IMG/VR virus record: IMGVR_UViG_3300007351_000024 | Source of the DNA: a virus | Length of the DNA stretch: 43,535 bases | Direction: 5' to 3' (one strand) | In this document: piece by piece, positions 4,353 through 34,276 of the stretch | Numbering within the stretch: position 1 is the first letter of the stretch | How the letters are laid out: the number at the start of each line of letters is the position of its first letter | Program-made: the position numbers and the translations under genes | Notes under the pieces: model-generated | Seen by the model: the letters and a program-made list of their open reading frames with translations, nothing else | Databases searched by the model: none | Told to the model about the DNA's origin: nothing

Positions 4353-4865
4353 ATGGCACAGAAAAGAATGTTTGACCGTTCAATTGTAGACAATGAACGC
4401 TTTGTCGATATGCCAATGTCCTCAAAAGGACTGTATTTTCTTTTGGGCATGTCTGCAGATGACGAAGGATTTGTGAGTGCGAAAGCGGTATTACGAGTAC
4501 ATGGAGGGACTGATGACGACCTTAATATCTTACTAGCCAAGGGTTTCTGCATCCGTTGTCCAAGCGGAATCATCGTTATTACTCACTGGCGTAAGAATAA
4601 TTGGCTTGATAGCAGGCGTTTAAGGAGAACTGAATACACGGAAGATAAGAAATGGCTCGCATTGACAAGTAATGGCGATTATGTGCTTAGCAACGGCTTA
4701 GCCAGTGTAGAGGAGAGTAGAATAGAAGAGAATAGTAAAGCTACCGCTAAAATACAAAATCCCTTTGAAGGCAGGGAACTCACTAAAGAAGAGAGACTCA
4801 CTAGACTCCGAGAGATTAAGGAAAGTTCGCGTAAGGTTGCCGACTCGAAAAAACTTGACTCTTAA
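4353..4865 (+). CDS. Phage replisome organizer, N-terminal-domain family protein
   Basis: 170 aa. 'KRMFDRSIVDNERFVDMPMSSKGLYFLLGMSADDEGFV...LLAKGFCI...GIIVITHWRKNNWL' matches the Phage_rep_org_N pattern (F..mp.saq.LYfhL.m.ADDdGFv ... I.HW...N). Confidence 0.75.
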   Translation: MAQKRMFDRSIVDNERFVDMPMSSKGLYFLLGMSADDEGFVSAKAVLRVHGGTDDDLNILLAKGFCIRCPSGIIVITHWRKNNWLDSRRLRRTEYTEDKKWLALTSNGDYVLSNGLASVEESRIEENSKATAKIQNPFEGRELTKEERLTRLREIKESSRKVADSKKLDS

Positions 4866-5964: not shown

Positions 5965-5971
5965 GAAATAT

Positions 5972-6130
5972 ATGGACGAAAAAGAGAAAATAGAACTGTT
6001 ATTAAAGCTTGCGGAAATGGAGCGAGACAACAAACCAATTGTTGAAAAAGTAAGCGATGTTGTTGTTGATGTGGTAGAAGCTCCTTTCAAAATCGCTGGA
6101 AGATTATTTGATGATATATTCGGAACTTAG
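5972..6130 (+). CDS. Small hypothetical protein (52 aa)
   Basis: ORF found by hand (MDEKEKIELLLKLAEMERDNKP...). It fills a gap in a tightly packed + strand array. Confidence 0.4.
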   Translation: MDEKEKIELLLKLAEMERDNKPIVEKVSDVVVDVVEAPFKIAGRLFDDIFGT

Positions 6131-6153
6131 CCACCCCAAGAAATAATATAAGT

Positions 6154-6303
6154 ATGGATGAAATTAAAAAAAGGATAGGAATTATCATAAAGTTGTTTGA
6201 GAAAATAAAAGAAGAGAAGTTAGGAACCGAAAACGAATTGCGACTCATTCTTAATGATATGAAGAGGATATCAAATATATTGGAAGCAACCATAAGGAAC
6301 TAG
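6154..6303 (+). CDS. Small hypothetical protein (49 aa)
   Basis: ORF found by hand (MDEIKKRIGIIIKLFEKIKEEK...). The antisense 68-aa ORF at 6087..6293 is low-complexity and judged spurious. Confidence 0.4.
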   Translation: MDEIKKRIGIIIKLFEKIKEEKLGTENELRLILNDMKRISNILEATIRN

Positions 6304-6306
6304 AAT

Positions 6307-6468
6307 ATGAGAAGTAGACAAGAAATATGGAATGGATTTAATTCTGATACCGTGGAACGCGATTTTATTGTTGATGTTTTAGAAGTCTTACTCGACATCC
6401 GCGAACTATTACAAAACCCGCCAAAAGAAATCACAGGCGTACCAAACCAAATAACTACCTATGAGTAA
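6307..6468 (+). CDS. Small hypothetical protein (53 aa)
   Basis: ORF found by hand. Its ATG lies 3 nt after the upstream stop. Confidence 0.4.
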   Translation: MRSRQEIWNGFNSDTVERDFIVDVLEVLLDIRELLQNPPKEITGVPNQITTYE

Positions 6469-6589
6469 GAAGAAAAAAGACCATGATGTATGTTTAGATT
6501 TAAATTGTAAGCGAGAACGATGTTTTTGGCATAGATGGGCGGCGAGACTAAAGATAACAAGGAAAGCTCAAACACCCCATGCTACCTAG
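6461..6589 (+). CDS. Small basic Cys-containing hypothetical protein (42 aa)
   Basis: ORF found by hand (MSKKKKDHDVCLDLNCKRERCFWH...). It overlaps the upstream ORF by 8 nt. Confidence 0.3.
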   Translation: MSKKKKDHDVCLDLNCKRERCFWHRWAARLKITRKAQTPHAT

Positions 6590-6601
6590 ACCAATGAGGA
6601 C

Positions 6602-6919
6602 ATGAAAACATCTCCAACTCAAAGAACCTTAAAAGAACTACGAAAGAGAGGCGTTCCTTGTGCCGTCACGGAGCACTGGAATAGCTTTGCCAAGATACGC
6701 CAAGACCTCTTTGGAATCTTTGACATTCTCTACCTTGAAAACTCGATTGTAGGCGTGCAATGCACTTCAGCAACGAATCATACGGCTCGGGCACTTAAAG
6801 TGCGCCAGAGTCCAATTTTAGGGGCTTGGCATAGTGCTGGAGGTCGAATAGAGGTATGGAGTTGGCGTAAAGTGGCCAAGACAGGAAAATGGGTGTCACG
6901 GATAGAGAAGATAACTTGA
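6602..6919 (+). CDS. Putative PD-(D/E)XK-type nuclease / Holliday-junction-resolvase-like protein
   Basis: 105 aa. 'E..(n)..RQDLFGIFDILYLE...VGVQCTS' resembles restriction-endonuclease-fold motifs (D...D/E.K-like). The function is tentative. Confidence 0.45.
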   Translation: MKTSPTQRTLKELRKRGVPCAVTEHWNSFAKIRQDLFGIFDILYLENSIVGVQCTSATNHTARALKVRQSPILGAWHSAGGRIEVWSWRKVAKTGKWVSRIEKIT

Positions 6920-6923
6920 CACT

Positions 6924-7148
6924 ATGAAAGAAACATGGAAAGAGCACAAAGGATTTAAGGACGAATCACCTCGTCCCATGTACATCCAATTCCCAGACTG
7001 GTGGTATAAGGAGCACAACCTAGAGCCAGTGGAGCTTTGGACACTTAAAAATATTAAGTTAGAGGTTATAGGTAAGTCCAATTTACCTACTTATACACAC
7101 GATGAACTTGACCAAGAAATAGCACAAGATACCATGAAGGGCACATGA
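6924..7148 (+). CDS. Hypothetical protein
   Basis: 74-aa ORF with an ATGA overlap into the GT6 gene. Confidence 0.55.
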   Translation: MKETWKEHKGFKDESPRPMYIQFPDWWYKEHNLEPVELWTLKNIKLEVIGKSNLPTYTHDELDQEIAQDTMKGT

Positions 7149-8350
7149 AGGTGCGAAAAGCAAAAATCGCTCTCCCAAAAAATAAGTATTTCTCCAAGTT
7201 TGAAGTAAATGATGACGGACTGGTAGCAGAAATTAAGGAAAAGAAGAAAGTAGCACTCCTATTCGTGTGCCTTAACGACCTCTACTGGCCGTATGTTATC
7301 CAGGTAGTAAAGGACTGTAAGAAACATTTTCTTCCTCACCACAACGTAGATTTCTTTGTCTGGTCAGATTTGCACCGTTTCCAAGAAGTGAAGAACAGTA
7401 TTGTAGCTGAATCTGAACACATTGTAGGTACTCCAAAGGAGAAAGCCGCCAAAGCAGTAGATTTTGCGGTAAAGACCATCCAATACTTCCAGCTCTATCC
7501 CGCTACCCCACAGTACGTCCAAGACCTACAGAAGATGCAGGTCTTTTATCGCGTTGACCCCTCTAAAGGAATTGCCTTTATCGAAGCCGCTGTAAATCAA
7601 GATGACGAGAAACAGGTCAACCATTTCGTAGACATCCTTAAATCAGTGTGTTTTTCCATCATTCGGTCAGCAGAAGAAGAATTGGAGAACTTCCTAAAAG
7701 GAGTAACGCTTATCGAATCAGACCCTGCGCCATGGCCAGCACCTACACTCATGCGCTACCACCTCTTCTTAAACGAAGAGGAAAGACTGAAGAAGTACGA
7801 CTATTTGTTTTACTTAGATTCCGACATGAAAGTCGTCCAGAAGGTGAGTGATGAACTCTTAGGAGAAGGTCTTACCGCCGCACCTCACCCTGGCTATGCG
7901 GTAAATAAGCGTATGTTGCCTCCGTATGAGCCAAATCCAGAGTCTACCGCCTACATTCATCGTTTGGGTCATGTTGTTGAGGAAGAGCCTGGAAAGAAGC
8001 GTTTTTACCCGTTCTACGCGGCAGGAGGACTCCAAGGAGGAGTCGCAAAGAAGTTCTTAAAGGCCATGAGGGTAATGAAAAAGGGAATCAATGATGATTT
8101 TGACAAGAATTACACCGCTATCTGGAACGACGAAAGCCATTGGAATAAGTATCTGTGGGAGTACCAGAGAAAAGGTGGCGACATTACGTTCCTTGACGTT
8201 TCATATGTATACCCTGATTCTCTCTTGAAAGAGTATTACATCCCCATGTGGGGCAAAGAATACGAGCCCAAGATAATCACCCTTACAAAACCTTGGTCTG
8301 TCTCAAAAGAAGGAGGTAGACAACTCTCGGAGTTCATCAAACCGCAATGA
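7145..8350 (+). CDS. Glycosyltransferase family 6 (ABO / alpha-1,3-Gal(NAc)-transferase-like), DXD-containing
   Basis: 401 aa. These motifs align with human GTA/GTB as I recall them: 'KKHFLPHHNVDFFVWSD' (KHF..GH.V..YVFTD), 'YDYLFYLDSDM' (DYLVCVDVDM), 'LTAAPHPGYA', 'YEPNPESTAYI' (YERRPQSQAYI), 'FYAAGGLQGG' (FYYLGGFFGG) and 'IWNDESHWNKYLW' (VWHDESHLNKYLL). Confidence 0.85.
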   Translation: MKVRKAKIALPKNKYFSKFEVNDDGLVAEIKEKKKVALLFVCLNDLYWPYVIQVVKDCKKHFLPHHNVDFFVWSDLHRFQEVKNSIVAESEHIVGTPKEKAAKAVDFAVKTIQYFQLYPATPQYVQDLQKMQVFYRVDPSKGIAFIEAAVNQDDEKQVNHFVDILKSVCFSIIRSAEEELENFLKGVTLIESDPAPWPAPTLMRYHLFLNEEERLKKYDYLFYLDSDMKVVQKVSDELLGEGLTAAPHPGYAVNKRMLPPYEPNPESTAYIHRLGHVVEEEPGKKRFYPFYAAGGLQGGVAKKFLKAMRVMKKGINDDFDKNYTAIWNDESHWNKYLWEYQRKGGDITFLDVSYVYPDSLLKEYYIPMWGKEYEPKIITLTKPWSVSKEGGRQLSEFIKPQ

Positions 8351-9012
8351 AAACTACTTGCATAATTCCGAGCTACAACCAAGAAGAATACTTGGAAGAG
8401 GCGATAGAATCGGCCTTAGCTCAATCAGTTCCCTGTGAAGTACTTGTGATAGACGATGGTAGTACGGATAACTCCCTTGCAATCGCACAGAAATACGAGC
8501 CACGAGTGAGGGTAATTAGTCAGGTGAATAAAGGATTAGCGAGTGCGCGGAACACGGGGATAATGAACGCGACTGGAGAATACATTTTACCTCTCGATGC
8601 GGACGATTCCTTACTTCCTAGGTGTGTTGAGGTCTTAGAGATGATTGCCGATGCAACTGGCGCAGAGGTTGTATCTCCATCATTTCAGGAGTATGGGTTA
8701 GGAACTGCCACAGTTACCTTGATGGCGAATCCTACATTGGAGGACTTCAAAGTAGGTAATCGTGTTGGGTATTGTTCTCTGATAAAGAAATCAGCTTTGT
8801 TAGAAGTTGGAGGATATTCACCTCGAATGGTTGAAGGATACGAAGACCTGCATATGTGGTTCAACTTACTCACCAGAGGTTTTAGAATCGTTACCGTACC
8901 GGAGCCGTTATGGAAATATCGAATTAAAGAAAAGTCCATGTTTAAGGATGCACTCAAACACCACGACAAGCTAATGGCGCAGATTTATAAGGATTTTCCA
9001 CAAGCAAAATAA
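8347..9012 (+). CDS. Glycosyltransferase family 2
   Basis: 221 aa. 'CIIPSYNQEEYLEEAIESALAQS', 'VLVIDDGSTDNS', 'NKGLASARNTGI' and 'LPLDADD' form the classic GT-A/GT2 signature. It has an ATGA overlap upstream. Confidence 0.9.
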   Translation: MKTTCIIPSYNQEEYLEEAIESALAQSVPCEVLVIDDGSTDNSLAIAQKYEPRVRVISQVNKGLASARNTGIMNATGEYILPLDADDSLLPRCVEVLEMIADATGAEVVSPSFQEYGLGTATVTLMANPTLEDFKVGNRVGYCSLIKKSALLEVGGYSPRMVEGYEDLHMWFNLLTRGFRIVTVPEPLWKYRIKEKSMFKDALKHHDKLMAQIYKDFPQAK

Positions 9013-9013
9013 T

Positions 9014-9613
9014 ATGCCTAAAGTCTCTATAGTCATCCCCTATCACGATACTCCACAGACAGCGTTCTTTCTATGTCGCTTACTGGCAACACTCAATGAA
9101 CAGACATATCAAAATTACGAGATTGTTCTAATGAAAGAGGGAAGAATGGGAAAGACCTACAATGCGTGCATAAAGAAAGCCACGGGGGACATTATAAAGC
9201 TCATGGGAATGGATGATTACTTCTTTGACAAAGATTCATTACAGAAAATTGTAGATGCTTTCAAACATGAGGAGGTGTATTGGCTTGCCACCGCATGTCT
9301 GCACGACCAAGGGAAAGGACCAAATAATTACCACGAAGCGAATTGGAATGACAAGCTGTTTAAGGGATACAACACAGTAGGTGGATTTGCGACCATCAGT
9401 TTGAGAAACAAGGATATACCAGAAATTGATGAATCACTTGATTGGACGGTAGATGTGGACTGGTACTGGCGTATTTATAAGCAACACGGCCTCCCTTACA
9501 CGATTAAGGATGCCGTCGTGGTCATTGGTGTTGGGCCTCATCAAACCACGGAGAAAATTAGCATGGAACAGAAGAATAAAGAATGGGAGGAAACTTCTAA
9601 AAAATATGAGTAA
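9014..9613 (+). CDS. GT2-like (GT-A fold) glycosyltransferase
   Basis: 199 aa. 'VSIVIPYHD...LATLNEQTYQNYEIVL' and 'GDIIKLMGMDDYF' (DD as a DXD-like motif) are present. It is more diverged than the preceding GT2. Confidence 0.65.
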   Translation: MPKVSIVIPYHDTPQTAFFLCRLLATLNEQTYQNYEIVLMKEGRMGKTYNACIKKATGDIIKLMGMDDYFFDKDSLQKIVDAFKHEEVYWLATACLHDQGKGPNNYHEANWNDKLFKGYNTVGGFATISLRNKDIPEIDESLDWTVDVDWYWRIYKQHGLPYTIKDAVVVIGVGPHQTTEKISMEQKNKEWEETSKKYE

Positions 9614-10625
9614 ACGAGTATTGTTAACTGGCATTTCAGGTTCGATTGCGACTCATTTTGTAGCGCACTTCATGCACAACACCGATTGGGAAATAATCGG
9701 CATTGACTCGTTCAGGCACAAAGGATGGGGTGAGCGTTTGCTTGAAGTTACCAGTGAACACCCTGAATGGAGAGACAGAATCTCTGTCCATACCCATGAC
9801 CTCTCGGCTCCCCTTTCACCGATTCTTAAAAGACGCCTTGGGAAGATTGATTACATCATCTCTATGGCTTCCCTTTCTGACGTAGAAGCCTCTATTCAAG
9901 ACCCTGTGCCTTTTGTACAAAACAATGTTAACTTAGCCCTTAACTTACTTGAATATGCGAGAGAAGCGAAACCCGAAGTCTTTATCCAAATCTCAACCGA
10001 TGAAGTCTACGGTGCGTCTGCCTCGAAGTTTGGTGATTTACGGAAAGAGTGGGATGCCATTATCCCTTCTAATCCCTATGCCGCTTCAAAGGCGGCGCAA
10101 GAAGCCATAGCTATCTCTTACTGGAGAACCTATGGTGTCCCTGTAATCATCACAAACACGATGAATAACTTTGGGGAAATGCAACAACCCACTAAATATC
10201 CCGTGATGATTCAGAAAGCAGTAGAAAATGGCGAAACTATTCTCATTCATGGAAGGGAGGGACAAATCGGCTCTCGCTCATACATCCACTCACGGAACTT
10301 TGCGGATGCAATTTTGTTCATTCTCAAGAATCTTCCTCCTCACATGCACGTACCGCTTTCAGCGGATAGGCCGGATAGGTATAACATTGCAGGAGATAAA
10401 CAACTGGATAATCTTGAACTCGCACAGACAATCGCCTCTCTCATGGGGAAAGAATTAAAATACGAACTCGTTGACTCTCACAGTGCCCGACCTGGACACG
10501 ACCCGCACTATGGCCTTGATATGACGAAGCTATACAGCAAGGGTTGGAAATCACCGAAAACGTTTGAAGAATCCCTTTCTGGAACTATCAAATGGCAACA
10601 GGAGCATAAAGAATGGATTGAATAA
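9606..10625 (+). CDS. NDP-hexose 4,6-dehydratase (RmlB/RfbB-like extended SDR)
   Basis: I moved the start from 9453 to the in-frame ATG at 9606 ('MSKRVLLTGISGSIATH', a Rossmann motif). 'STDEVYG', 'YAASKAAQE' (YxxxK), 'TNTMNNFGEMQQP' and the C-terminal 'RPGHDPHYGLD...GW.P' are all present. Confidence 0.85.
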   Translation: MSKRVLLTGISGSIATHFVAHFMHNTDWEIIGIDSFRHKGWGERLLEVTSEHPEWRDRISVHTHDLSAPLSPILKRRLGKIDYIISMASLSDVEASIQDPVPFVQNNVNLALNLLEYAREAKPEVFIQISTDEVYGASASKFGDLRKEWDAIIPSNPYAASKAAQEAIAISYWRTYGVPVIITNTMNNFGEMQQPTKYPVMIQKAVENGETILIHGREGQIGSRSYIHSRNFADAILFILKNLPPHMHVPLSADRPDRYNIAGDKQLDNLELAQTIASLMGKELKYELVDSHSARPGHDPHYGLDMTKLYSKGWKSPKTFEESLSGTIKWQQEHKEWIE

Positions 10626-10626
10626 T

Positions 10627-10776
10627 ATGTTAAAACTTCCTCCCAAATACAAGACAAAAAGAAAAGGGCGTCCACAACCCAACTCTCACCCCTGGAAACA
10701 GGTTTTCGTACTCACCTATCCTAAGAAAATCTTTTCTTCTGGGTATAAGATAAAAAAGAACCATGCGACCCGTTAG
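10627..10776 (+). CDS. Possible small basic protein (49 aa)
   Basis: The ATG lies 1 nt after the dehydratase stop, the typical junction here. It fills an otherwise unusual 137-nt gap and overlaps the GT11 start by 14 nt. It has no recognisable motif. Confidence 0.3.
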   Translation: MLKLPPKYKTKRKGRPQPNSHPWKQVFVLTYPKKIFSSGYKIKKNHATR

Positions 10777-11350
10777 ACAAGTCATCGGAGGGTTGGGCAA
10801 TCTCATGTTCAAGGAGGCGTTTTTGTGGTCTTTGGCGCGTGAGAAGTTGATACCTGATGTGTATGTTCAGGGTGAACATTATTGGGAAAAATATGCACAT
10901 GAGATACAAACACTATTTGGTCATGGTATTGGCCATGATGAGCGCATTGCTCTACATATTCGTAGAGGAGACTACTTAAAAGTTCAACAATTTCACGTCA
11001 ACCTTTGGGACACTGATTATTATAAAGTAGCAGTTTCTCTGTTCCCAAAAGAAAAGTTCCTCGTGTTTTGTAAGGACAATCAAAGTGAAGCACAAGACAA
11101 GGATGACCGTGAGTGGTGTGAAAAGAATATCCCATCATTGGGTATTGATTTTGAACTCCACAATCACACAACAGAAACAGAGGATATGAACACAATGGCC
11201 AGTTGTAAAGGGATTATCATGGCAAATAGTAGCTTTTCTTGGTGGGCGGCGTACTTAGGAAATCCTAAAAAGAAAGTCGTTTGCCCTGCGAAATGGTTTA
11301 CGGATGGAGCACAAAGGACGCAATTACTTTCTAAGTGGACTCTTGTATGA
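10763..11350 (+). CDS. Glycosyltransferase family 11 (alpha-1,2-fucosyltransferase-like)
   Basis: 195 aa. 'VIGGLGNLMFKEAF' corresponds to GGLGNQMFQYA, 'ALHIRRGDY' to HIRRGDY, and 'MANSSFSWWAAYLG' to SNSTFSWWAAYL. Confidence 0.85.
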   Translation: MRPVRQVIGGLGNLMFKEAFLWSLAREKLIPDVYVQGEHYWEKYAHEIQTLFGHGIGHDERIALHIRRGDYLKVQQFHVNLWDTDYYKVAVSLFPKEKFLVFCKDNQSEAQDKDDREWCEKNIPSLGIDFELHNHTTETEDMNTMASCKGIIMANSSFSWWAAYLGNPKKKVVCPAKWFTDGAQRTQLLSKWTLV

Positions 11351-12291
11351 AAGTTGCAATCACAGGTTCATTAGGTCTTACAGGTTCAGCTTGTATGGAG
11401 ATGTGTAAGAAGAAAGGATGGACTCCTGTTGGAGTAGACGCAAATATGCGCAGCTACTTTTTCGGTACTCCTAAACAGGAATATGGCGATTCCATTGAAC
11501 TGGATATAAGAAACCAAGAAGCTGTTGAGGAGCTTTTTAAGCAACACAAGTTTGACGCAATCATTCATACAGCCGCACAACCATCTCACGATTGGGCAAA
11601 GAACGACCCTTTAATGGACTTCGATACAAATGCACGAGCCACCCTCATTCTCTTAGAGGCGACACGCAAGTACGCTCCAGATGCAATTTTTGTGCATGTA
11701 TCTACTGACAAGGTATATGGTGAAAATATGACAGGAAGTGAAAAACCTTTCACTGAAACGCTTGGATTAGACTTTGCAGGTGTTCGTTCCCTATTTGGAT
11801 GCTCAAAAGCCGCTTCTGATATGTACGCACAGGAATATGCAAACTATTTCGGAATGAAAGTTGTAGTGTTTCGTCCTGGGTGCATAACAGGAAAAGTCCA
11901 TCAAGGTGCGGAATATCACGGATTCCTTGCGTATCTAGCGAAGTGCATTAAAGAGGGAATTACCTACAAAGTGCATGGGGATGGCAAACAAGTACGCGAC
12001 CAAATACATGCGAGTGATTTAGCAGATGCGTTCGGGCACGTTATTTCTGACTTTAAGGGAAGTAATGTCTACAACATTGGGGGTGGACCGAACCGTTCTG
12101 TTTCTCTCCTAGAGGCAGTTGATATGATTGAGAAAGAGACAGGGAAGAAAGCCAAATTAGAGTTTGGATTCCCTAACAGGAGAGGAGACCGCCTATGGGA
12201 TGTACATGATGTAACAAAGTTCCGTTCCGATTACCCTGATTGGGACTATCAATACTCACTACAAGATATTATTAAAGAACTTTCTGCATGA
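11347..12291 (+). CDS. NAD-dependent sugar epimerase/reductase (extended SDR, CDP-paratose/tyvelose 2-epimerase-like)
   Basis: I set the start at ATG 11347 (ATGA overlap with the GT11 stop; 'MKVAITGSLGLTGSA'). 'STDKVYG' and 'YGCSKAASDMYAQEYANYFGMKVVVFRPGCITG' (YxxxK) are present. Confidence 0.8.
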   Translation: MKVAITGSLGLTGSACMEMCKKKGWTPVGVDANMRSYFFGTPKQEYGDSIELDIRNQEAVEELFKQHKFDAIIHTAAQPSHDWAKNDPLMDFDTNARATLILLEATRKYAPDAIFVHVSTDKVYGENMTGSEKPFTETLGLDFAGVRSLFGCSKAASDMYAQEYANYFGMKVVVFRPGCITGKVHQGAEYHGFLAYLAKCIKEGITYKVHGDGKQVRDQIHASDLADAFGHVISDFKGSNVYNIGGGPNRSVSLLEAVDMIEKETGKKAKLEFGFPNRRGDRLWDVHDVTKFRSDYPDWDYQYSLQDIIKELSA

Positions 12292-13454
12292 AATATAAAT
12301 GGCGATACGGAGGGGCGCTAGTCGGTAAGGAAGAACGTAAGGCAATTCTTCGTTCCTTTGATAGCGGATGGTTCCCATGGGGTAAGGAGGGTGAAAAGTT
12401 TGAAGAAGAAGCCGCCAAGTATCTTGGAGTAAAGTATGGTCTTGGTGCTAACAGTGGCTCAAGTGCTGGATTACTTGCGTTAAGTGCCCTTGAATTGGAA
12501 AAGGGTAGTGAGGTTATCATTCCGGCGGTTACATTCCCTACAATCTTCAACATAATTCTTCAGTGTGGCCTCATTCCTGTTGTCGTAGATACCAAGGTAG
12601 GAACCTACAACATAGACCCTGACCAGATAGAAAAAGCAATTTCAGGAAAGACGAAAGCGATTATCTGTGTCCATGCAGTAGGGAACCCCTGCGACATGGA
12701 ACGCATTATGAAGATAGCTAACGAACACAAACTATATGTCATTGAAGACAACTGCGACGGTTGGGGAGGTACTATTGGCTCTAAAAGAGTTGGAACATTT
12801 GGCCACATATCCTTCACCTCATTCCATGCCGCGCATATTGTTGCTATGGGACAAGGTGGGGGAGTATTTACGAACGATAGAGAACTTGCCCGTAAAGTGC
12901 GAATGTATCGAGACTGGGGAAGACAAAGTGAAATCAAAAGCAGAATCAACAATAAAAAATGGCCGACGCTCCCCGAAGACCAAGACGCGAGGTTCATCTA
13001 CGAAAAGATAGGGTACAACCTTTCTCCTCTTGAATTACAAGCGGCGATGGGGAGAGTTCAGTTGCGAAAGACAGAGAAAATTAAACGATTGCGGAGAAGA
13101 AACTTTGATTATCTCTATAAAGAACTTTCAAAGTTTGATGACTTAATAATGCCAATAACAGTAGAGGGTGCTAACCCCTCATGGTTTTCTTTTCCCCTTA
13201 CAACGACGGAAGAACGTATGCCGCTTCTCATGCACTTAGAAGAGAACGGTGTAGAGACAAGAAGCATGTTTGCAGGGAACGTGCTACGTCATCCGGCCTA
13301 TGAGGGAGTGCCACACCGACAAGTGGGGAATCTCCAAAACTCTGATTACATTCTTCGCCATTCATTCTGGATACCTGTGCATCCTCGCTACTCTCCAAAA
13401 GACCTTAAAGGAATGGTTAAGGTCTTCGAGAAGTTCTATGCTAAAACTTCCTAA
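12288..13454 (+). CDS. DegT/DnrJ/EryC1-family PLP/PMP enzyme, sugar 3-dehydrase-like (E1/ColD-like). His occupies the Schiff-base Lys position.
   Basis: 388 aa. Motifs are 'NSGSSAGLLAL', 'IIPAVTFPT', 'EDNCDGWG', 'SFHAAHIVAMGQGG' (typical aminotransferases have SFH..K....GEGG), 'RDWGR', 'GYNLSPLELQAAMG', 'PSWFSFP' and 'FAGNVLRHPAY'. Confidence 0.8.
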   Translation: MKYKWRYGGALVGKEERKAILRSFDSGWFPWGKEGEKFEEEAAKYLGVKYGLGANSGSSAGLLALSALELEKGSEVIIPAVTFPTIFNIILQCGLIPVVVDTKVGTYNIDPDQIEKAISGKTKAIICVHAVGNPCDMERIMKIANEHKLYVIEDNCDGWGGTIGSKRVGTFGHISFTSFHAAHIVAMGQGGGVFTNDRELARKVRMYRDWGRQSEIKSRINNKKWPTLPEDQDARFIYEKIGYNLSPLELQAAMGRVQLRKTEKIKRLRRRNFDYLYKELSKFDDLIMPITVEGANPSWFSFPLTTTEERMPLLMHLEENGVETRSMFAGNVLRHPAYEGVPHRQVGNLQNSDYILRHSFWIPVHPRYSPKDLKGMVKVFEKFYAKTS

Positions 13455-14022
13455 CGTAACACTCATTCTCCTCACTAACCGCGACTTCGCGGGAGCTAAA
13501 AAAGCTATTGATGAGTCATGCAATGAGATAGAGTTTGGAGGTGTAAAGCTGATTTGGGATGAAAAGATTTCCTCCATTGATGAATGGAATCGCAAGGTAA
13601 TTCAAGAGTTACCAGATTATGTTCACACTACCCATGCCCTCCTCATTCACCAAGACGGCTACGTAAAGAATCCAGCGTTATGGAATACGGAATGGTTGCT
13701 TTTAGATTACATAGGTGCTCCATGGCCTATGCCTGTAGATAATTTTTCCTACAAGGATGATAAAGGTAGACTGCAACGAGTTGGAAACAGTGTGTCGTTA
13801 CGTTCTAAGGAGCTCATGGAATTAGTAAGAACGAGAGAGTGGCGACCTTACTACGGATTTACTAATGAGGATGGCTTTATCTGTTGCCATAACAGGGGTT
13901 GGCTCGAAGACCAAGGGTGTAAGTTTGCAACGCTTGAGCAAGCAGTTCATTTCTCTAAGGAACATGAGATACCAGAGAATAAAGGCATTAACACGTTTGC
14001 ATTTCATAAAGTAGATGTATGA
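13438..14022 (+). CDS. DUF5672-like putative glycosyltransferase
   Basis: I set the start at the in-frame ATG 13438 ('MLKLPNVTLILLTNRDF'). 'HQDGYVKNPALW...LDYIGAPW...VGNSVSLRSKEL' matches my recollection of the DUF5672 pattern (H.DG...n...W..fl.yDYIGAPW...vGNGGfSLRs). Confidence 0.55.
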   Translation: MLKLPNVTLILLTNRDFAGAKKAIDESCNEIEFGGVKLIWDEKISSIDEWNRKVIQELPDYVHTTHALLIHQDGYVKNPALWNTEWLLLDYIGAPWPMPVDNFSYKDDKGRLQRVGNSVSLRSKELMELVRTREWRPYYGFTNEDGFICCHNRGWLEDQGCKFATLEQAVHFSKEHEIPENKGINTFAFHKVDV

Positions 14023-14531
14023 GTATTGCAGAAGAAAAATACGAAGAGCTACTGAAAACCCCCTCGGATGTAAACATGCACTTCCCTACAATACGGAAGT
14101 ATGTGAAAGAGGGAGACATTGTCGTTGAGCTGGGCGTGCGTAACTGTGTTTCTACGTGGGCACTCTTAGTGAGTAAACCAAAGCATCTTATTTCAGTAGA
14201 CATAGTTGCTCCTCCTTTTGGGAATGTCTTGGAAGTAGAACAAGCGGCACGAGAGCAAGGAAGTGGATTTAATTTTGTACAGCAAGACTCAATAAACATT
14301 GAGATTAAACCTGCGTGCGATGTCCTGTTCATAGACACACTCCATTTGTATAGCCATATCGTCAAAGAGTTGTGGCGTCATGCGGGAAGAACAAAAAAGT
14401 ACATCATCTTCCATGACTATCTCATTCCTGAAGTCAGCGCATGTATCCATGATTTTCTCTACAATCCTGATTGGGAATGGCAAGAAATTAACTCGGAGGG
14501 AACGGGACTCGCAGTAGTGAAGCACGTATGA
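14019..14531 (+). CDS. Class I SAM-dependent methyltransferase
   Basis: 170 aa. 'SDVNMHFPTIRKYVKEGDIVVELGVRNCVSTWALL' and 'DVLFIDTLHLYSHIVKELWRHAGRTKKYIIFHD' match a common phage and bacterial methyltransferase family. It has ATGA overlaps on both sides. Confidence 0.7.
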   Translation: MSIAEEKYEELLKTPSDVNMHFPTIRKYVKEGDIVVELGVRNCVSTWALLVSKPKHLISVDIVAPPFGNVLEVEQAAREQGSGFNFVQQDSINIEIKPACDVLFIDTLHLYSHIVKELWRHAGRTKKYIIFHDYLIPEVSACIHDFLYNPDWEWQEINSEGTGLAVVKHV

Positions 14532-15220
14532 TTCTCATAACAGGTTACAGAGGATGGATTGGCTCTCTTCTTGCTGATGAGTTTGACGAGTTTTCAGGTA
14601 TTGATGTAAGAGATGGGACAAACCTCATTACGTGTGCTCTACCACCTCCAGAAGAAGTAGATATCATCTATCATCTTGCGGCTCAATCTTCTGTGGAGTA
14701 TTCATGGTACGACCCAATCCATGATGCAGATAACCTGCGAATGACTATTAGGTTAGTACATGCGTATCCTGAAGCGAAACTTATCTATACAAACTCTGCG
14801 GCATCAAAAGACCGTTCATCTCCGTATGGATTCTCTAAATGGGCGTGCGCTGAATATATCAAGCAATTCCACAACAATTACGTCATTTGCACACTCCCTA
14901 ATGTATATGGCGAGGGTTCCCGAAGTGTCGTAGATATCTTCAAAGAACTGGATGAAGTGGAGGTATATGGAAGTGGAGATAACACAAGAACGTATGTGCA
15001 CGTAGATGATATCATTCAAGCACTGCTCAAAGCCCAAGATTGGCGGTGTGGTGAATATGAGTTGGGTAATGGAATAGCAACGAGTGTTATTGAACTCGCA
15101 CAAGGAAAGAAAGTGAATCATTTGCCTCCTCGTATGGAATCGAAAGAATCTGTCATTCAGAACTCTACTCCAAATTGGGAACCGAAGATAAATGTGTTTG
15201 AGTATTTGAAAGATGTATGA
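14528..15220 (+). CDS. Short NAD(P)-dependent epimerase/reductase (SDR)
   Basis: 230 aa. It has 'MILITGYRGWIGSLL' (Rossmann motif), 'IIYHLAAQSS', 'YGFSKWACAEY' (YxxxK) and 'LPNVYGEG'. Confidence 0.7.
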   Translation: MILITGYRGWIGSLLADEFDEFSGIDVRDGTNLITCALPPPEEVDIIYHLAAQSSVEYSWYDPIHDADNLRMTIRLVHAYPEAKLIYTNSAASKDRSSPYGFSKWACAEYIKQFHNNYVICTLPNVYGEGSRSVVDIFKELDEVEVYGSGDNTRTYVHVDDIIQALLKAQDWRCGEYELGNGIATSVIELAQGKKVNHLPPRMESKESVIQNSTPNWEPKINVFEYLKDV

Positions 15221-16017
15221 TTGCTGGGATTTTCCATGAAGGTAGCGGATTAGGCGACCAACTCTTTAGATACATTACTGTCAGGACTCTTGCAGAAGAA
15301 AAAGGATATAAGTTTTCTATGGTTTTTCCCGAAGCATTCAAAGCAAACTTCTTTCTTAATTTAACTACTATTGAACCATTCCAACCAAAGTCTAAAGACT
15401 CTACATTTCACGCGAGTCGTTGGAATGAGAAAGAAGTAAAAGAAAATGGTTTAGACATTCGGTCCTACGACCCTGAAATTAACTTTGTAGAAGATAACAC
15501 CGTTATTGATGGTTCATTTGAAGACTCAAAGTATTGGGGACACAACTTAGATAACATTAACAAGTGGTTGCGAGTAGAACCGTTAGAAGTACCTAACGAT
15601 ACTGTAGTTCTCGGTTTTCGAGGTGGAGAGTATTACACAGACCCGAATCTTGGATTACCAAGAGAGTATTTTGAGAACGCAATGAGTTATTTTACTCCTC
15701 GTGTTGAGTTTCAAGTGCATACCGATGACCCCGATTTTGCGATGAAGTTCTTTCATAGCGTGAAAGGGAACATGAGCTTTGTAGATAACAAACCTATTTC
15801 ACATAGTAAACATGAAAATATGGGATTCAATTGGAGGTCAGCGCGATTTGCAAAGCACGCAATAATTCCTAACAGTGCTTTCTTTATTCTTCCTCGCTTA
15901 CTGAAACATCATGAAGACCCTACTGCTGTGACGATAGCTCCGCGTTATTGGGCTAGACGCAACACAAAGACCTGGGCTAGACCTGCTTGTTACTACAAGC
16001 AATTCACGTATGTTTGA
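15217..16017 (+). CDS. GT11-like / fucosyltransferase-fold glycosyltransferase (diverged)
   Basis: 266 aa. 'GSGLGDQLFRYITVRTLAEEKGY' is motif I-like, 'VLGFRGGEYY' stands in place of HIRRGDY, and 'AIIPNSAFFILPRLL' stands in place of SNSTFSWW. Confidence 0.5.
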   Translation: MIAGIFHEGSGLGDQLFRYITVRTLAEEKGYKFSMVFPEAFKANFFLNLTTIEPFQPKSKDSTFHASRWNEKEVKENGLDIRSYDPEINFVEDNTVIDGSFEDSKYWGHNLDNINKWLRVEPLEVPNDTVVLGFRGGEYYTDPNLGLPREYFENAMSYFTPRVEFQVHTDDPDFAMKFFHSVKGNMSFVDNKPISHSKHENMGFNWRSARFAKHAIIPNSAFFILPRLLKHHEDPTAVTIAPRYWARRNTKTWARPACYYKQFTYV

Positions 16018-16065
16018 TTACCCGAAAAGTTGGGTTTGGAATCTTATTCTTAGAGTAATCGAACT

Positions 16066-16710
16066 ATGGAAGCGGTACTTGTAAATTACAACTATAACCC
16101 GACGTGGGTGCTAGAATATCCTGATTTAGAGCCAATTATTTACGATAGGAGCGACGATGGGATTGAGAGGAATCTGACGCGCTATGGCCCTGTATATAAA
16201 ACAGAGAATATTGGCAATGTTGATTACGACAAACTAGGATACTTAATCAAAAACTATGATGCTCTTCCTGAATATTTCTTGTGGGGGAAATCGAACCTAT
16301 TCAAATACATTTCAAAAGAAGAATTTGATGCAGTCAAAGATAATCAAACCTTCACTCCATTGCTAACACAGAACCACCATACGTACTCTGATAATACGTT
16401 GCCTGAAGGTAATCCGGTTTGTTTCTACAAAGACAAAATGTATCACGAAAGAAAAGGCATCGTTAATACCCTTCCAGGGTTAATGCTCCACAAATACTTC
16501 GATTCGTGGGAAGAGTGGTGTAAAGAGTTTCATATTCCTGAAGTTGGTCATATTCCCTTTCCACCAGGTGGCAACTTTATCCTCACACGAGAAGCAGTTT
16601 GGAAATATAGTCGTGATTTCTACCAAAAGATGCGTGATACACTGGACTATACACAGCTTCCTTTTGAAGCGCAGTTAGCCGAGAGGAGTTATTACTTGTT
16701 ATGGCGATAA
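16066..16710 (+). CDS. Hypothetical protein inside the glycan operon
   Basis: 214-aa ORF that overlaps the next gene by 10 nt. 'NIGNVDYDKLGYLIKNYDALPEYFLWGK' is faintly reminiscent of DUF3431-type proteins, with very low certainty. Confidence 0.55.
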   Translation: MEAVLVNYNYNPTWVLEYPDLEPIIYDRSDDGIERNLTRYGPVYKTENIGNVDYDKLGYLIKNYDALPEYFLWGKSNLFKYISKEEFDAVKDNQTFTPLLTQNHHTYSDNTLPEGNPVCFYKDKMYHERKGIVNTLPGLMLHKYFDSWEEWCKEFHIPEVGHIPFPPGGNFILTREAVWKYSRDFYQKMRDTLDYTQLPFEAQLAERSYYLLWR

Positions 16711-17477
16711 TTGATTGTTTCACCTATAACGGAGAACGAGATATCTTGCGAATTCATCTTGAATGTACGCCATGGGTAGATAAGTACATCATCGTTGAAG
16801 CAAATCAGACATTCACAGGGAAGCCAAAACCTCTCTATTTCTTCAGGGACAATCGCTATTACAAGAAATGGTGGAACAAGATTGATTATTTCGTGGTAAA
16901 TAAGTGGGACGATGATGCTCTCTGGGAAACAGCACGTTCTAGTCCACTCACAAAAGGGGCAGAGCACTGGAAGCGAGAGTTTTACACAAAAGAGCATGTA
17001 CTTAGAGCTCTTCGCTCATGTGGTACTCAACCTGACGACATTGTATATGTAGGGGATGTAGATGAGATTCCTATGCAATGGAATGGTCCTATGCCAGCTA
17101 AATTACGGCTTAAAGTCTATGCGAATTACCTCAACAATCGCTCAAACGAGCTATTCTGGGGCACATACGTAGCGCCATATAATTATTTTAAGGACAGGTT
17201 GATGAATAACGAACGCAACAGGAAAGATATCCGAACCAACGAAGAATGTGGCTGGCATTTCACTAGCATGGGGGGACTAAAGGAAGTACAACGCAAACTT
17301 AATGACACTTACACAGCCGAAACATATGCCGCACCACAGATTCTTGAAATGGTTCCTGAACGCCACGCAAAAGCAGTAGATATATTTGGAAGACACTACA
17401 CATTTACGGTGGATGAATCGGAATGGCCTACGTATCTCAAGGAGAATAGAGCTAAGTTCAAACATTTATGTCTGTAG
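16701..17477 (+). CDS. Glycosyltransferase family 17-like (GnT-III-like), paralogue 1
   Basis: 258 aa. It has 'IIDCFTYNGERDILRIHLE...VDKYIIVEANQTFTGKPKPLYF', 'VGDVDEIP' and 'CGWHFTSMGG', which is the GT17 pattern (DcF.f.nE.d.L..Rl...VD.FviVEs..TF.G..Kpl ... DvDEIP ... GWHfS). Confidence 0.75.
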   Translation: MAIIDCFTYNGERDILRIHLECTPWVDKYIIVEANQTFTGKPKPLYFFRDNRYYKKWWNKIDYFVVNKWDDDALWETARSSPLTKGAEHWKREFYTKEHVLRALRSCGTQPDDIVYVGDVDEIPMQWNGPMPAKLRLKVYANYLNNRSNELFWGTYVAPYNYFKDRLMNNERNRKDIRTNEECGWHFTSMGGLKEVQRKLNDTYTAETYAAPQILEMVPERHAKAVDIFGRHYTFTVDESEWPTYLKENRAKFKHLCL

Positions 17478-18250
17478 TAGATTGTTTCACGTATTCGGGA
17501 GAGGTAGATATGCTCCATTTGCACTTATCCTGTCTTGACCCATACGTTGACCACTTTATACTAGGAGAAGCCGCGATAACGTTCTCTGGTCGCACAAAAC
17601 CTCTCTATTTTGACGAACAGTATACACAAGAGAGATTCCAAAAGTTCGTTCACAAAATCACCTATGCAGTCGTGGATGACTTCTATCATCCTAGTATTCT
17701 CAAGTACATGCAGAGGTTTAATTGGTATGAGATGAACTATCCATTCAAGATGTCTTTCAACCAAAAAGAACACCTGCAAGTAGGGTTGTCAGCACTAGGA
17801 TTAAAGGAATCTGACACTGTATATTTCGGCGATTGTGATGAGATTTGGACGCCACAAACACCTCAAAAGGAAGCGCATAAGTTGGAACAACTCATGTACT
17901 CATATCACCTAAACAGGCGTTCAACAGAGAAATGGGCGGGCACGTTTATTGCTCCTTACAAGGAAGTGAAAGAGAAAGGAATCAATCATTTGCGTAAAGA
18001 AACCACCAAGACACTACCAAATGGCGGCTGGCACTTTACGAATATGGGTGGCCTAGAGGCGGTACACAAGAAACTACGAGACTACGACCACCAAGAGATA
18101 AACACGGCGGACATCCATTCCAACCTTGAAAGGAGATTCAAAGAAGGCATTGATTTCTTGGGTAGAGAACACCGTATGTATGTAGATGAATCAGAGTGGC
18201 CTATCTACCTAAAGGAACATAGAGAAGAATACAAACACTTATGTCTATAG
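17468..18250 (+). CDS. Glycosyltransferase family 17-like, paralogue 2
   Basis: 260 aa. It has 'VVDCFTYSGEVDMLHLHL...VDHFILGEAAITFSGRTKPLYF', 'FGDCDEIW' and 'GGWHFTNMGG'. It shares the C-terminal '...EWP.YLKE.R..(F/Y)KHLCL' with paralogue 1. Confidence 0.75.
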   Translation: MSVVDCFTYSGEVDMLHLHLSCLDPYVDHFILGEAAITFSGRTKPLYFDEQYTQERFQKFVHKITYAVVDDFYHPSILKYMQRFNWYEMNYPFKMSFNQKEHLQVGLSALGLKESDTVYFGDCDEIWTPQTPQKEAHKLEQLMYSYHLNRRSTEKWAGTFIAPYKEVKEKGINHLRKETTKTLPNGGWHFTNMGGLEAVHKKLRDYDHQEINTADIHSNLERRFKEGIDFLGREHRMYVDESEWPIYLKEHREEYKHLCL

Positions 18251-18371: not shown

Positions 18372-18662
18372 ATGCAAGAAGAAGAGAATACAGGAGAACA
18401 GGAAAAAAACAGCAGAGAATGGCTTAAACCTTATCAATACAAGAAAGGGCAAAGTGGAAACCCTGATGGAAGACCTAAAGGTTCCGTATCGATGAAGACA
18501 TATGTGAAGAATAAGTTGCTCTCAATGACTCCAGAGGAGAGAGAAGAGTTTTTAGAGGGAATTGATAAGAAGACGATATGGGAGATGGCAGAGAATAAAC
18601 CAACCCAAGACCTACAAGTAGATGCAGATGTCAGAGAACACATCATCAGCGTTGACGAATGA
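18372..18662 (+). CDS. Putative small terminase / DNA-binding protein (DUF5681-like 'GNPDGRPKG' motif)
   Basis: 96 aa, immediately upstream of the large terminase and overlapping it. The motif is 'KKGQSGNPDGRPKGS'. Confidence 0.5.
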   Translation: MQEEENTGEQEKNSREWLKPYQYKKGQSGNPDGRPKGSVSMKTYVKNKLLSMTPEEREEFLEGIDKKTIWEMAENKPTQDLQVDADVREHIISVDE

Positions 18663-20025
18663 GAGCATTGATAAGTTCTCGGACTTGTCAGGTTTCTTTC
18701 CTAAACAGCGTGAAGCACAAGAGGCAAGCAAACGCTTCAAGTTCACTTTATTTGGTGGAAGTGTAGGAAGTGGTAAATCAAGGTGGCTTCGCTGGATGAT
18801 GATTTACTGGCTCTTAAAGTACTACTCCAAGTACAAGATAAAGGGCATAAGAGCAGGATTGTTTTGTGAGGATTATCCCAGCTTGAACGACAGACACTTA
18901 ACCAAGGTTCGCTTTGAGTTCCCTGAATGGCTAGGAACATACAACGAGTCTAAAAAAGAGTTCACTCTTAAAGAGAAATATGGAAGTGGCATCCTTGCGT
19001 TTCGTAACCTTGATGAACCAGAGAAATACTTGTCTGTTGAGTTTGCTGTCATGGGAGTAGATGAAATCAATCGTAACCCTAAGACCACTTTTGATATGTT
19101 GCGTTCACGTCTTCGATGGCCTGGTATTAAAGATGTGAAGTTCCTTGCGGGATGTAACCCTCTAGGAGAGGCGTGGGTAAAGAATATCTGGGTCAAACGT
19201 CTCTTCTCACCAGAAGAGAAAGAGCAATACGAGTTTGTGTTCGTTCCTGCATTACCTACTGACAATCCACACTTAGATGCGTCGTACTACAAATCTCTTG
19301 AATCACTGCCTGAAACACAACGCAAAGCATATTTGGAGGGAAATTGGGATGCGTTTGATGAAGGCATGGATGAGAAGGGCTACTTGCGTTTAGTGAATGA
19401 CAGAGAATTACGTGGCTCAATGGTACAAACAGGAGAGCACTCTGGGTACAGAGTATTAGGCGTTGACCCTGCGGCTGGTGGAGACAATTCAGCCATAGTG
19501 TTGAAGAGCGCAAACCTGCAAGAAATCCTCTTCAATCAGAAGCTACAGAACACCATGGACTTAGTTGGAGTCATTATGGAGTTATATAGGGACTATGAGG
19601 CGGCAATGATTGTAGTGGACTCAACAGGAGTAGGACGTGGAGTGTATGACCGCTTACGTGAGACAGATTATCCTGTGAGGAATGTGGACTTTGGTTCTAA
19701 GCCAACAGATGAAACGATGTTTAAGGACATCAAGGCAGAGCTGTATTGGAAACAGCGAGAATGGCTCTTAAAGGGAGGACGCTTGTTACATAACTACGGA
19801 TGGAATGAGTTTGAGATAGTGAAGTACAAGCACATGGATGGAAACTCCAAGATTCGCATACAGCCTAAAGAGGAGTTGTTCAGAGAGGGCATCGCTTCTC
19901 CCAACTGTGTGGACGCTGCCGTATTGACGATGGCAATAAGCGACACCACAATAAGAAGCAATCGTATGCTTAACAGCGGTACTGTGTTTAGAGACAAAAT
20001 GCTCGACGTATGGCAAGGAAACTAA
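18622..20025 (+). CDS. terL: Terminase large subunit
   Basis: 467 aa. It has a Walker A motif 'GGSVGSGKS' and a Walker B-like 'VMGVDEINR'. The C-terminal nuclease-like region includes 'VLGVDPAAGGDNSAIV'. It sits upstream of the portal gene. Confidence 0.9.
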   Translation: MQMSENTSSALTNESIDKFSDLSGFFPKQREAQEASKRFKFTLFGGSVGSGKSRWLRWMMIYWLLKYYSKYKIKGIRAGLFCEDYPSLNDRHLTKVRFEFPEWLGTYNESKKEFTLKEKYGSGILAFRNLDEPEKYLSVEFAVMGVDEINRNPKTTFDMLRSRLRWPGIKDVKFLAGCNPLGEAWVKNIWVKRLFSPEEKEQYEFVFVPALPTDNPHLDASYYKSLESLPETQRKAYLEGNWDAFDEGMDEKGYLRLVNDRELRGSMVQTGEHSGYRVLGVDPAAGGDNSAIVLKSANLQEILFNQKLQNTMDLVGVIMELYRDYEAAMIVVDSTGVGRGVYDRLRETDYPVRNVDFGSKPTDETMFKDIKAELYWKQREWLLKGGRLLHNYGWNEFEIVKYKHMDGNSKIRIQPKEELFREGIASPNCVDAAVLTMAISDTTIRSNRMLNSGTVFRDKMLDVWQGN

Positions 20026-34271: not shown

Positions 34272-34276
34272 GATAT

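Follow-up and report, generated by a model that had tools for sequence, protein, structure and literature searches.

Phage genes for glycan synthesis, serotype conversion of the host, glycosylation of the virion and the glycan gene clusters of giant viruses are already known. Mycobacteriophages with glycosylated virions are known to carry a few transferases, and are not known to have eight or nine together with a rare-sugar branch. Virion glycosylation itself has been established in mycobacteriophages (Freeman et al. 2023, as cited in PMC12619734), and glycosyltransferases are common in predicted phages of Patescibacteria (candidate phyla radiation, CPR), where they have been read as cell-surface modification genes (PMC11310336). 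Here we describe a glycan-synthesis operon in the IMG/VR virus record IMGVR_UViG_3300007351_000024, a stretch of 43,535 nucleotides that was analysed as a whole and is referred to as the window. What is new is the size and completeness of a soluble pathway in a 43-kb phage and its fixation in an abundant uncultured lineage, together with its collinearity with a Wzx/Wzy locus conserved in Patescibacteria, the probable exchange of genes between the two, and its unusual enzymes. We tentatively favour the reading, which we rate just short of an even chance, that the phage carries the soluble half of the Wzx/Wzy-type surface-glycan pathway of its host, with the rare-sugar arm swapped, and runs it on lipid-linked primers made by the host.

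The operon occupies positions 7145-18250 on the + strand, and its 11,106 bp amount to 25.6% of the 43,436 unique bp of the genome, in line with the preliminary description of this DNA, which had reported an 11-kb co-directional and translationally coupled unit. The same description had spoken of roughly 15 genes. The single run on the + strand stands, but the number of open reading frames (ORFs) is 14, which is also the number in its own list. Eleven of the 13 junctions overlap or are no more than 1 nt apart, six of them as ATGA, and in order the gaps are -4, +1, -8, +137, -4, -4, -17, -4, -4, -4, +48, -10 and -10 nt, so that two junctions alone are wider, with gaps of 137 nt and 48 nt. Elsewhere in the genome, junctions this tight number 1 out of 14 in the early and 10 out of 20 in the late (virion) region.

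Profile and fold searches (Pfam, NCBIfam, hhalign, AlphaFold/Foldseek) bore out the earlier gene calls nearly one for one. The operon encodes eight well-supported glycosyltransferases, to which a DUF3431 protein can probably be added as a ninth. The first gene (7145-8350, 401 aa) belongs to the GT6 family (PF03414, E 4e-15). From about residue 35 onwards its product shows the GT-A/GT6 fold in full, with an insertion of ~100 aa at about residues 75-185 and a DXD motif that reads 'DSD', and scores 136 bits against NCBIfam Gltr_6, below the cut-off of 250. It is followed by a GT2 glycosyltransferase with a DAD motif (8347-9012, 221 aa; PF00535, E 2e-35) and by a GT2-like gene, GT2b (9014-9613, 199 aa), which matches GT2 in part (PF00535, E 2e-8) and whose family alignment shows the GT2 N-terminal and DDY motifs. 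A compact GT11-family enzyme of the fucosyltransferase type (10763-11350, 195 aa; PF01531, E 3e-21) carries the motifs GGLGN, HxRRGDY and NSSFSWW, and its short length is conserved in relatives. A second member of the GT11 superfamily, GT11b (15217-16017, 266 aa), has no Pfam match and was recognised by hhalign against the GT11 alignment (98% probability, E 2e-13), the alignment of its homologues containing GSGLGNQ, FRGGEY and NSSF. The operon closes with two GT17-like genes, at 16701-17477 (258 aa; PF04724, E 4e-19) and 17468-18250 (260 aa; PF04724, E 1e-19), the latter a divergent paralogue; most relatives have one GT17 gene only.

The two remaining transferase assignments concern DUF families. 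The DUF5672 protein (13438-14022, 194 aa; PF18922, E 5e-11) is a glycosyltransferase of GT-A fold according to its AlphaFold model (pLDDT 93.6), for which the top Foldseek match in the Protein Data Bank (PDB) is A64R of the chlorovirus PBCV-1 (2p6w, E 4e-5, TM 0.63). Eleven PDB fold matches reach E ≤0.001, and ten of these are glycosyltransferases; the other, 2nxv, is majastridin in its apo form, a name that does not mark it as a transferase. The gene at 16066-16710 (214 aa) had been described as of unknown function, and can now be placed in the DUF3431 family (PF11913, E 5e-8). Its modelled structure (pLDDT 96.7) makes it a probable GT-A-like transferase, the ninth of the operon: its PDB matches are GT-A enzymes, albeit weak ones (E ≥0.03, TM ≤0.4), and in BFVD it matches multidomain viral proteins at E 2e-9, one of which is annotated as GT-A type. 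Sequence profiles of DUF5672, GT11b and DUF3431 gave no significant match in the PDB, and hhalign detected no relationship of DUF5672 to DUF3431 or to the GT2-like family.

The other five genes, likewise on the + strand, form a sugar-tailoring branch. A nucleoside diphosphate (NDP)-hexose 4,6-dehydratase (9606-10625, 339 aa; PF16363/PF01370, E 1e-38) contains GxxGxxA, the Thr-Asp-Glu motif 'STDEVYG' and YAASK (YxxxK); its best NCBIfam match is dTDP-glucose 4,6-dehydratase (193 bits, below the cut-off), and its best PDB match, 6bi4 (E 3e-41), is likewise a dTDP-glucose 4,6-dehydratase. The product of 12288-13454 (388 aa; Pfam E 2.5e-90) had been called a DegT-family enzyme, and while the family is correct this is not an aminotransferase but a pyridoxamine 5'-phosphate (PMP)-dependent NDP-4-keto-6-deoxyhexose 3-dehydrase of the E1/RfbH/ColD type, in which a His stands where aminotransferases have their Lys. 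It matches NCBIfam RfbH with 376 bits (E 2e-112, cut-off 423) and PDB 3bcx, the CDP-6-deoxy-4-hexulose 3-dehydrase E1, at E 4e-84; its 'SFHAAH' aligns with 'SFYPAHH' of 3bcx, and the H220K mutant of E1 (3bb8) reads 'PAKH' at the same position. The Cys-rich loop that binds the [2Fe-2S] cluster of E1 is deleted in the enzyme of the window and its lineage, and no ORF for an E3-like reductase was found in the window, so the 3-dehydrase should work in the manner of ColD, free of Fe-S. Together the 3-dehydrase and the 4,6-dehydratase mark the branch as one of the 3,6-dideoxyhexose type and not of the aminosugar type.

Three further genes may act on the same sugar. An extended short-chain dehydrogenase/reductase (SDR) at 11347-12291 (314 aa; PF01370, E 1e-43) is closest to CDP-tyvelose 2-epimerase (TyvE) and matches PDB 9rl0 (E 3.7e-39) and 1orr (E 3.5e-31). 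The catalytic Tyr of its YxxxK motif is replaced by Phe ('SLFGCSK', against 'SPYGCSK' in both structures), and this replacement is kept in all 13 aligned relatives of the lineage. A short SDR (14528-15220, 230 aa; PF01370, E 2e-19) with the motifs GxxGxxG and YGFSK, in which YxxxK is kept, may be the 4-ketoreductase of the branch; several relatives do not have it. The gene at 14019-14531 (170 aa) encodes a putative class I S-adenosylmethionine (SAM) methyltransferase with a weak match to PF13578 (E 1.3e-3, below the cut-off), and its homologues occur in few relatives (L025, L040, L047, L051, L053 and L054). A GDP-fucose route by way of Gmd and Fcl was considered for the two long SDRs and rejected, as their scores against the NCBIfam gmd and fcl models are merely 36-38 bits. 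Enzymes of the GT11 family transfer fucose and colitose (3-deoxy-fucose), and by analogy a GT11-type enzyme of the operon is a plausible user of the dideoxyhexose product.

All of these enzymes appear to be soluble. As had been noted before, the operon has no membrane-spanning product: we found no hydrophobic 19-mer typical of a span, except for one in the buried core of the DegT fold. The earlier statement that an initiating phosphoglycosyltransferase, Wzx/Wzy, a ligase and a nucleotidyltransferase are lacking also holds, none having been found among the window ORFs searched by profile.

To look for related modules in cellular genomes we scanned 185,579 species, one genome each, with a DUF3431 alignment. 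The scan returned 26 loci, of which 21 lie on metagenome-assembled genomes (MAGs) that are Patescibacteria by record title, some of them on long contigs (326, 106 and 90 kb). The module is present, too, on a contig of 515 kb whose title says no more than uncultured bacterium. Examples of the CPR loci are those of a Nomurabacteria genome (MFVE01000005.1, L111) and of a Paceibacterota genome (L113), and locus L121. Their matches to the phage operon are collinear and run from 4,6-dehydratase through GT2-like, DegT, DUF5672, GT11-like, DUF3431 and GT17 to GT2 and GT11. A core set is common to phage and CPR in the same order, and consists of GT2-like (9014), DUF5672 (13438), GT11-like (15217), DUF3431 (16066) and GT17 (16701). 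The same CPR loci encode RmlA, RmlC, an RmlD-like protein and UDP-glucose dehydrogenase, as well as a Bac_transf initiating phosphoglycosyltransferase (at L113:528-1853, E 7e-63), a Polysacc_synt flippase and Wzy_C proteins. Judged by their gene content they are complete Wzx/Wzy surface-glycan loci, and include the classes that the phage is without.

This changes how the operon should be viewed. The preliminary description had seen in it no resemblance to a transplanted O-antigen or capsule locus, and this remains true in that the membrane and nucleotidyltransferase genes are absent; its soluble part, however, is collinear with complete loci of just this kind in CPR. Such homology raises remodelling of the host surface glycan above glycosylation of the virion in our ranking. 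In the Nomurabacteria chromosome the DUF5672 and GT11-like genes are fused as one ORF of 549 aa (L111:8319-9968), which supports a functional coupling of the two.

The core transferases of phage and CPR are as similar to each other as those of the phages are among themselves. Median identities between phage and CPR are 50% for DUF5672, 46% for DUF3431, 45% for GT17 and 43% for GT2-like, and the corresponding values between phages are 55%, 46%, 43% and 44%; over these four families the phage-CPR maxima range from 57% (GT2-like) to 76% (DUF5672). In a tree of DUF5672, which like all our trees was built by neighbour-joining only, the CPR clade is nested inside the phage lineage. Two genuine members of the phage lineage (L044 and L054) share 65-69% nucleotide identity with CPR chromosomal loci over 1.7-2.2 kb, and L049 shares 73% over 0.7 kb. 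These comparisons make it very probable that the hosts of the lineage are Patescibacteria, and that core transferases have been exchanged between the two more than once. Shine-Dalgarno-like motifs upstream of start codons are not enriched over background in any of the three sets examined, at 19-20% against 15-17% in the window, 10% against 13% in related phages (L025-L043) and 6% against 8% in the CPR loci (L107-L124). A Bacteroidota host was considered because of the absence of Shine-Dalgarno motifs, and was dropped because the CPR loci share that property.

From this complementarity we infer the following pathway. As the phage is without a nucleotidyltransferase, the starting substrate would be an NDP-hexose made by the host. 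The 4,6-dehydratase (9606) would convert it to an NDP-4-keto-6-deoxyhexose, from which the PMP-dependent 3-dehydrase (12288) would remove the 3-hydroxyl in the fashion of ColD. An SDR, for which the short SDR (14528), the TyvE-like protein (11347) or both are candidates, would complete the NDP-3,6-dideoxyhexose, and the product of 14019 might methylate the sugar. Eight or nine soluble transferases (GT6, GT2, GT2-like, two GT11-type, DUF5672, DUF3431 and two GT17) would then extend an oligosaccharide on a lipid-linked primer supplied by the initiating phosphoglycosyltransferase of the host, whose flippase and Wzy_C proteins would export and attach it. The infected cell would display a glycan with a core of the host type and a rare sugar specified by the phage, which may serve, for example, to mask the receptor, to exclude competing phages or to keep the surface of the episymbiont functional during infection.

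We favour this host-directed pathway on account of the ancestral context of the enzymes, the match between what the phage lacks and the host locus supplies, and the rapid turnover of the sugar arm. That the sugar arm turns over while the large terminase (TerL) stays at least 70% identical is as would be expected of surface glycans that are exposed and under selection. Several points count against it. Sharing with the host can be demonstrated for a part of the cassette only: GT2, GT11, the 4,6-dehydratase, the 3-dehydrase and GT6 are merely 26-32% identical to the CPR versions or absent there, and GT6 has no counterpart in the CPR loci at all. The host is assigned by homology only, and the scan of genomes relied on one peptide pattern, which may bias the taxa that were found. 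Among the window ORFs searched we detected no integrase, repressor or Gtr-type family, so that the precedent of serotype conversion by temperate phages does not directly apply and it is harder to see what a lytic phage would gain. The TyvE-like SDR lacks its catalytic Tyr, which makes one step of the proposed sugar pathway tentative. Finally, no terminator is predicted between the operon and the packaging and virion genes right behind it, an arrangement that suits a function directed at the virion as well.

This last point leads to the possibility that the soluble transferases build an oligosaccharide on the capsid or tail proteins of the phage itself in the cytoplasm, giving a glycan coat that may resemble that of the host. 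The enzymes are all soluble, the genome has no detected genes for a lipid carrier or export, and throughout the lineage the operon keeps its place directly before the terminase and virion genes, which are oriented as it is. PBCV-1 A64R, which tops the fold matches of DUF5672, glycosylates the major capsid protein of a chlorovirus, and DUF3431 matches multidomain proteins of the glycosyltransferase type from giant viruses and phages. In scale, with 8-9 transferases, tailoring of nucleotide sugars and possibly a methyltransferase, the operon also resembles the chlorovirus machinery for capsid N-glycans. The A64R match is, however, one of general GT-A fold, and other GT-A enzymes score almost equally. 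The homologous genes of the host belong to lipid-linked Wzx/Wzy loci, no protein-recognition domain was found, and none of the virion proteins has the Ser/Thr-rich C-terminal extension that serves as a proxy for glycosylation of the mycobacteriophage type; the capsid protein in particular has neither a Ser/Thr-rich nor an extended C-terminus. The core set is also found, in part, on distant IMG/VR contigs where relatives of the virion proteins of this lineage are not detectable, which, if those contigs are viral, argues for a common acceptor other than the virion. We therefore regard virion glycosylation as possible but rather unlikely. Somewhat less probable still, in our estimate, is a specific form of it, in which small (~43 kb) and apparently lytic phages of the ultra-small Patescibacteria would use 8-9 soluble transferases, shared and exchanged with the host locus, to build on their own virion proteins an oligosaccharide of the host type that ends in a 3,6-dideoxyhexose. 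Such phages would glycosylate their capsids autonomously, as chloroviruses do, and mimic the surface of the episymbiont.

The distant IMG/VR contigs just mentioned (L059-L101) encode a DegT-fold enzyme that combines the His with the canonical Cys motif of E1. A PHROG scan of the large ORFs that flank the module in them gave no phage hallmark, with a Clp-like protease in two, and for this reason they were not relied on as viral.

Other products can also be imagined. The operon may yield a dead-end lipid-linked or soluble glycoconjugate that sequesters the lipid carrier or nucleotide sugars of the host as a means of takeover, or else a glycolipid or small-molecule glycoside. The ORFs searched contain no export or ligation genes of the phage's own, and an altered sugar arm could give units that the host flippase or polymerase refuses; dead-end undecaprenyl-linked intermediates are known to harm cells (PMC11784914). 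For such an end, however, 8-9 distinct transferases under purifying selection far exceed the need, and we consider it improbable. To our knowledge there is no precedent for carrier sequestration by phage transferases.

Alternatively the transferases could glycosylate hydroxymethylated bases of DNA, as in T-even phages and in clusters of methyltransferase, 5mYOX and glycosyltransferase genes. Phage transferases related to those for lipopolysaccharide (LPS) and teichoic acid do place mono- to trisaccharides on 5-hydroxymethylcytosine (5hmC), and their clusters can adjoin structural genes, but sugar hypermodification of this kind needs an enzyme that forms hydroxymethyl-pyrimidine (bioRxiv 10.1101/2023.12.21.572611). 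No such acceptor-making enzyme, be it a dCMP/dUMP hydroxymethylase, a cytosine methyltransferase or a TET/JBP-type dioxygenase, and no DNA polymerase was detected in window ORFs of at least 200 aa. With homologous CPR loci that are envelope-glycan loci, and with nine transferases, far more than any known DNA glycan calls for, DNA hypermodification is very improbable.

The homology of the cassette to bacterial genes could also mean that host DNA was misjoined into a phage contig during assembly, and a worry about a chimera or insertion had been raised at the outset. It is dispelled by the structure of the genome and by its relatives. The left copy of a 99-bp direct terminal repeat (1-99) is identical to 43437-43535, which closes the genome at 43,436 unique bp and shows the window to be complete, either circularly permuted or terminally redundant. 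The GC content is continuous across both borders of the operon. Directly upstream of GT6, on the + strand at 6602-7148, are two small ORFs of 105 aa and 74 aa with no assigned function and no Pfam or PHROG match, and the second of them (6924-7148) overlaps the start of GT6 by ATGA. This overlap ties the cassette to an upstream phage ORF, and the translationally coupled unit probably starts there or earlier. At the other end the operon stops just before the terminase genes, as had been described, with a gap of 121 nt to a DUF5681 small-terminase-like ORF (18372) that is followed by TerL (18622); these two + strand genes (18372-20025) begin the packaging and virion module.

Related contigs were gathered from IMG/VR with the capsid protein and with the DUF3431 alignment. 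In all 11 distinct relatives that extend at least 11 kb upstream of TerL the cassette has the same position and the same flanks, and ends right before the terminase. These relatives are 70-78% identical in TerL and 55-77% in the capsid protein, and of the 14 cassette families each relative has 9-13, in an order that hardly differs. The layout recurs in an NCBI contig of 43,308 bp and in a Logan assembly, so that independently assembled contigs from many samples agree, and clusters of close homologues number >800 for DUF3431 and >1,600 for DUF5672, hundreds of them on contigs of about 40-45 kb. The chance that the cassette is an assembly artefact or host contamination is consequently negligible.

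Within this fixed frame the content of the cassette varies. Not every member has a second GT17, the methyltransferase or the short SDR, and some relatives add a cytidylyltransferase-like gene or an FkbM methyltransferase. The cytidylyltransferase-like gene (129 aa; PF01467, E 6e-17) was seen at L001:171-560 and at ~19 other loci and is absent from the window; it sits directly upstream of the GT11-like gene and hints at a CDP-activated substituent in those relatives. The state of the DegT fold also differs within the lineage. Most members, including the window, have the His type, L044 and L054 have the Lys type, L049 has another type, and L042 and L050 have no such gene; the Lys enzymes of L044 and L054 and of the CPR chromosomes (L107-L123) are true aminotransferases. 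The non-coding gap of 137 nt at 10626-10762, the largest within the operon, shrinks to nearly nothing in three relatives (L028, L030 and L032). In several relatives, though not in the window, an ORF of ~500 aa resembling GroEL/Cpn60 lies between the cassette and the small terminase (L036:12099-13661, L041:14196-15734, L042:11566-13125, L043:10081-11595 and L044:11366-12835, each recognised from N-terminal sequence only).

Deposited phage genomes contain little that resembles this lineage. Neither the operon nor the virion module had a megablast match among 50,697 phage records, and the same holds for two of the distant IMG/VR loci. In these searches no cultured phage turned up with the module. 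TerL found relatives there only at 24-32% identity by tblastn, while DUF3431 and GT17 both matched only an uncultured megaphage of 642 kb, GT17 finding in addition one marine single-virus contig. In the megaphage (LR756502.1) genes for an E1-like dehydrase, DUF3431 and a GT17-like protein lie within 6 kb of each other at ~445-451 kb, and the module may thus exist in huge phages as well. Against these 50,697 records the earlier assertion that such an enzyme combination has not been described in phages holds true. Exact-protein look-ups returned no record for the window's own proteins, and literature searches found no paper on DUF5672 in viruses and none on the NCBI/SRA accessions of the closest relative.

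Upstream of the cassette there is an apparent gap of 637 nt (5965-6601), which is filled by several short ORFs of <60 aa and has no obvious regulatory region; no promoter for the cassette could be assigned in it. Scans for sigma-70 promoters and for terminators gave fewer sites than in shuffled controls and are therefore uninformative for this type of host; they predicted no terminator between the operon and the packaging and virion genes. No tRNAs and no Rfam families were found in the window. The only recognisable replication-related genes are those of a DnaD-like helicase loader (4353-4865; PHROG E 3e-42) and a YopX protein (2352-2744), and as no polymerase, primase or helicase was detected in the window, replication must depend heavily on the host. 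In the late region, at 31953-38718, we observed a 772-aa ORF with a DUF3597/peptidase-like stretch and an ORF of 1,151 aa that ends in a CAP/SCP domain (E 1e-14) and is followed by an M23 peptidase of 215 aa; these proteins probably have tail-associated wall-degrading or lysis functions. Directly after the last + strand gene, at ~39055-39085, a GC-rich hairpin is followed by T-rich sequence, and beyond it lies the sole block on the minus strand (39130-42168), five ORFs with no family match except for a CARDB domain in 40252-40950.

A small phage that devotes a quarter of its genome to a soluble assembly line for glycans, in a position fixed throughout its lineage, differs from others that carry one or a few such genes. 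The homology with a Patescibacteria locus offers a concrete link to a host for phages whose hosts cannot be cultured, and points to a CPR surface glycan that is probably important for attachment to the partner cell or as a phage receptor. A glycan on the virion would make this the most elaborate virion glycosylation system known for a phage, and one on the cell would amount to surface conversion of an unusual sort, brought about by a phage without detectable genes for lysogeny. There is also novelty at the level of the enzymes, in DUF5672, DUF3431, the compact GT11 forms, the Fe-S-free E1-like 3-dehydrase and the Tyr-less SDR related to tyvelose epimerase.

Set beside known systems, the operon is closest to the Patescibacteria Wzx/Wzy loci, with which it shares a collinear set and core transferases that are as close to those of the host as phage is to phage. 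The host loci add Bac_transf, Wzx, Wzy_C, RmlA/C/D and UDP-glucose dehydrogenase, none of which the phage has, and their DegT enzyme has Lys where that of the phage has His, while GT6 is confined to the phage. The 3,6-dideoxyhexose pathways, both that of CDP-tyvelose, paratose and abequose (E1/E3) and that of GDP-colitose (ColD/ColC), resemble the tailoring branch in the 4,6-dehydratase, the His-type 3-dehydrase and the TyvE-like SDR. The phage differs from them in having no nucleotidyltransferase and no E3, in a dehydrase that is E1-like in sequence yet Fe-S-free as in ColD, and in an epimerase-like SDR with Phe for the catalytic Tyr.

The machinery of PBCV-1 and giant viruses (A64R, GMD/GMER) similarly combines many soluble transferases with tailoring enzymes and possibly a methyltransferase. 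It belongs to viruses of eukaryotic hosts with very large genomes, shows no homology at the level of sequence, and has been demonstrated to glycosylate capsids, a role that is only hypothetical for the present operon. Mycobacteriophages Che8, Corndog and Myrna (Freeman et al. 2023, cited in PMC12619734) likewise have lineage-conserved transferases that act in the cytoplasm. Their hosts are Actinobacteria, however, and their glycans are attached to C-terminal extensions of capsid and tail-tube subunits, of which none is seen here. Serotype-converting phages (gtrABC, O-acetylases, phage Wzy; PMC9241936) add to the glycan pathway of the host, as we propose for this phage, but they are temperate and do so with one to three genes, usually for membrane proteins that act outside the cytoplasm, in contrast to 14 soluble cytoplasmic enzymes and no detected lysogeny module. 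The auxiliary glycosyltransferases of CPR phages (PMC11310336) agree with our operon in the inferred host group and the proposed role at the cell surface. Those are single genes from bulk surveys, whereas the phage described here combines a 14-gene operon of 11 kb with a rare-sugar branch and collinearity with the host.

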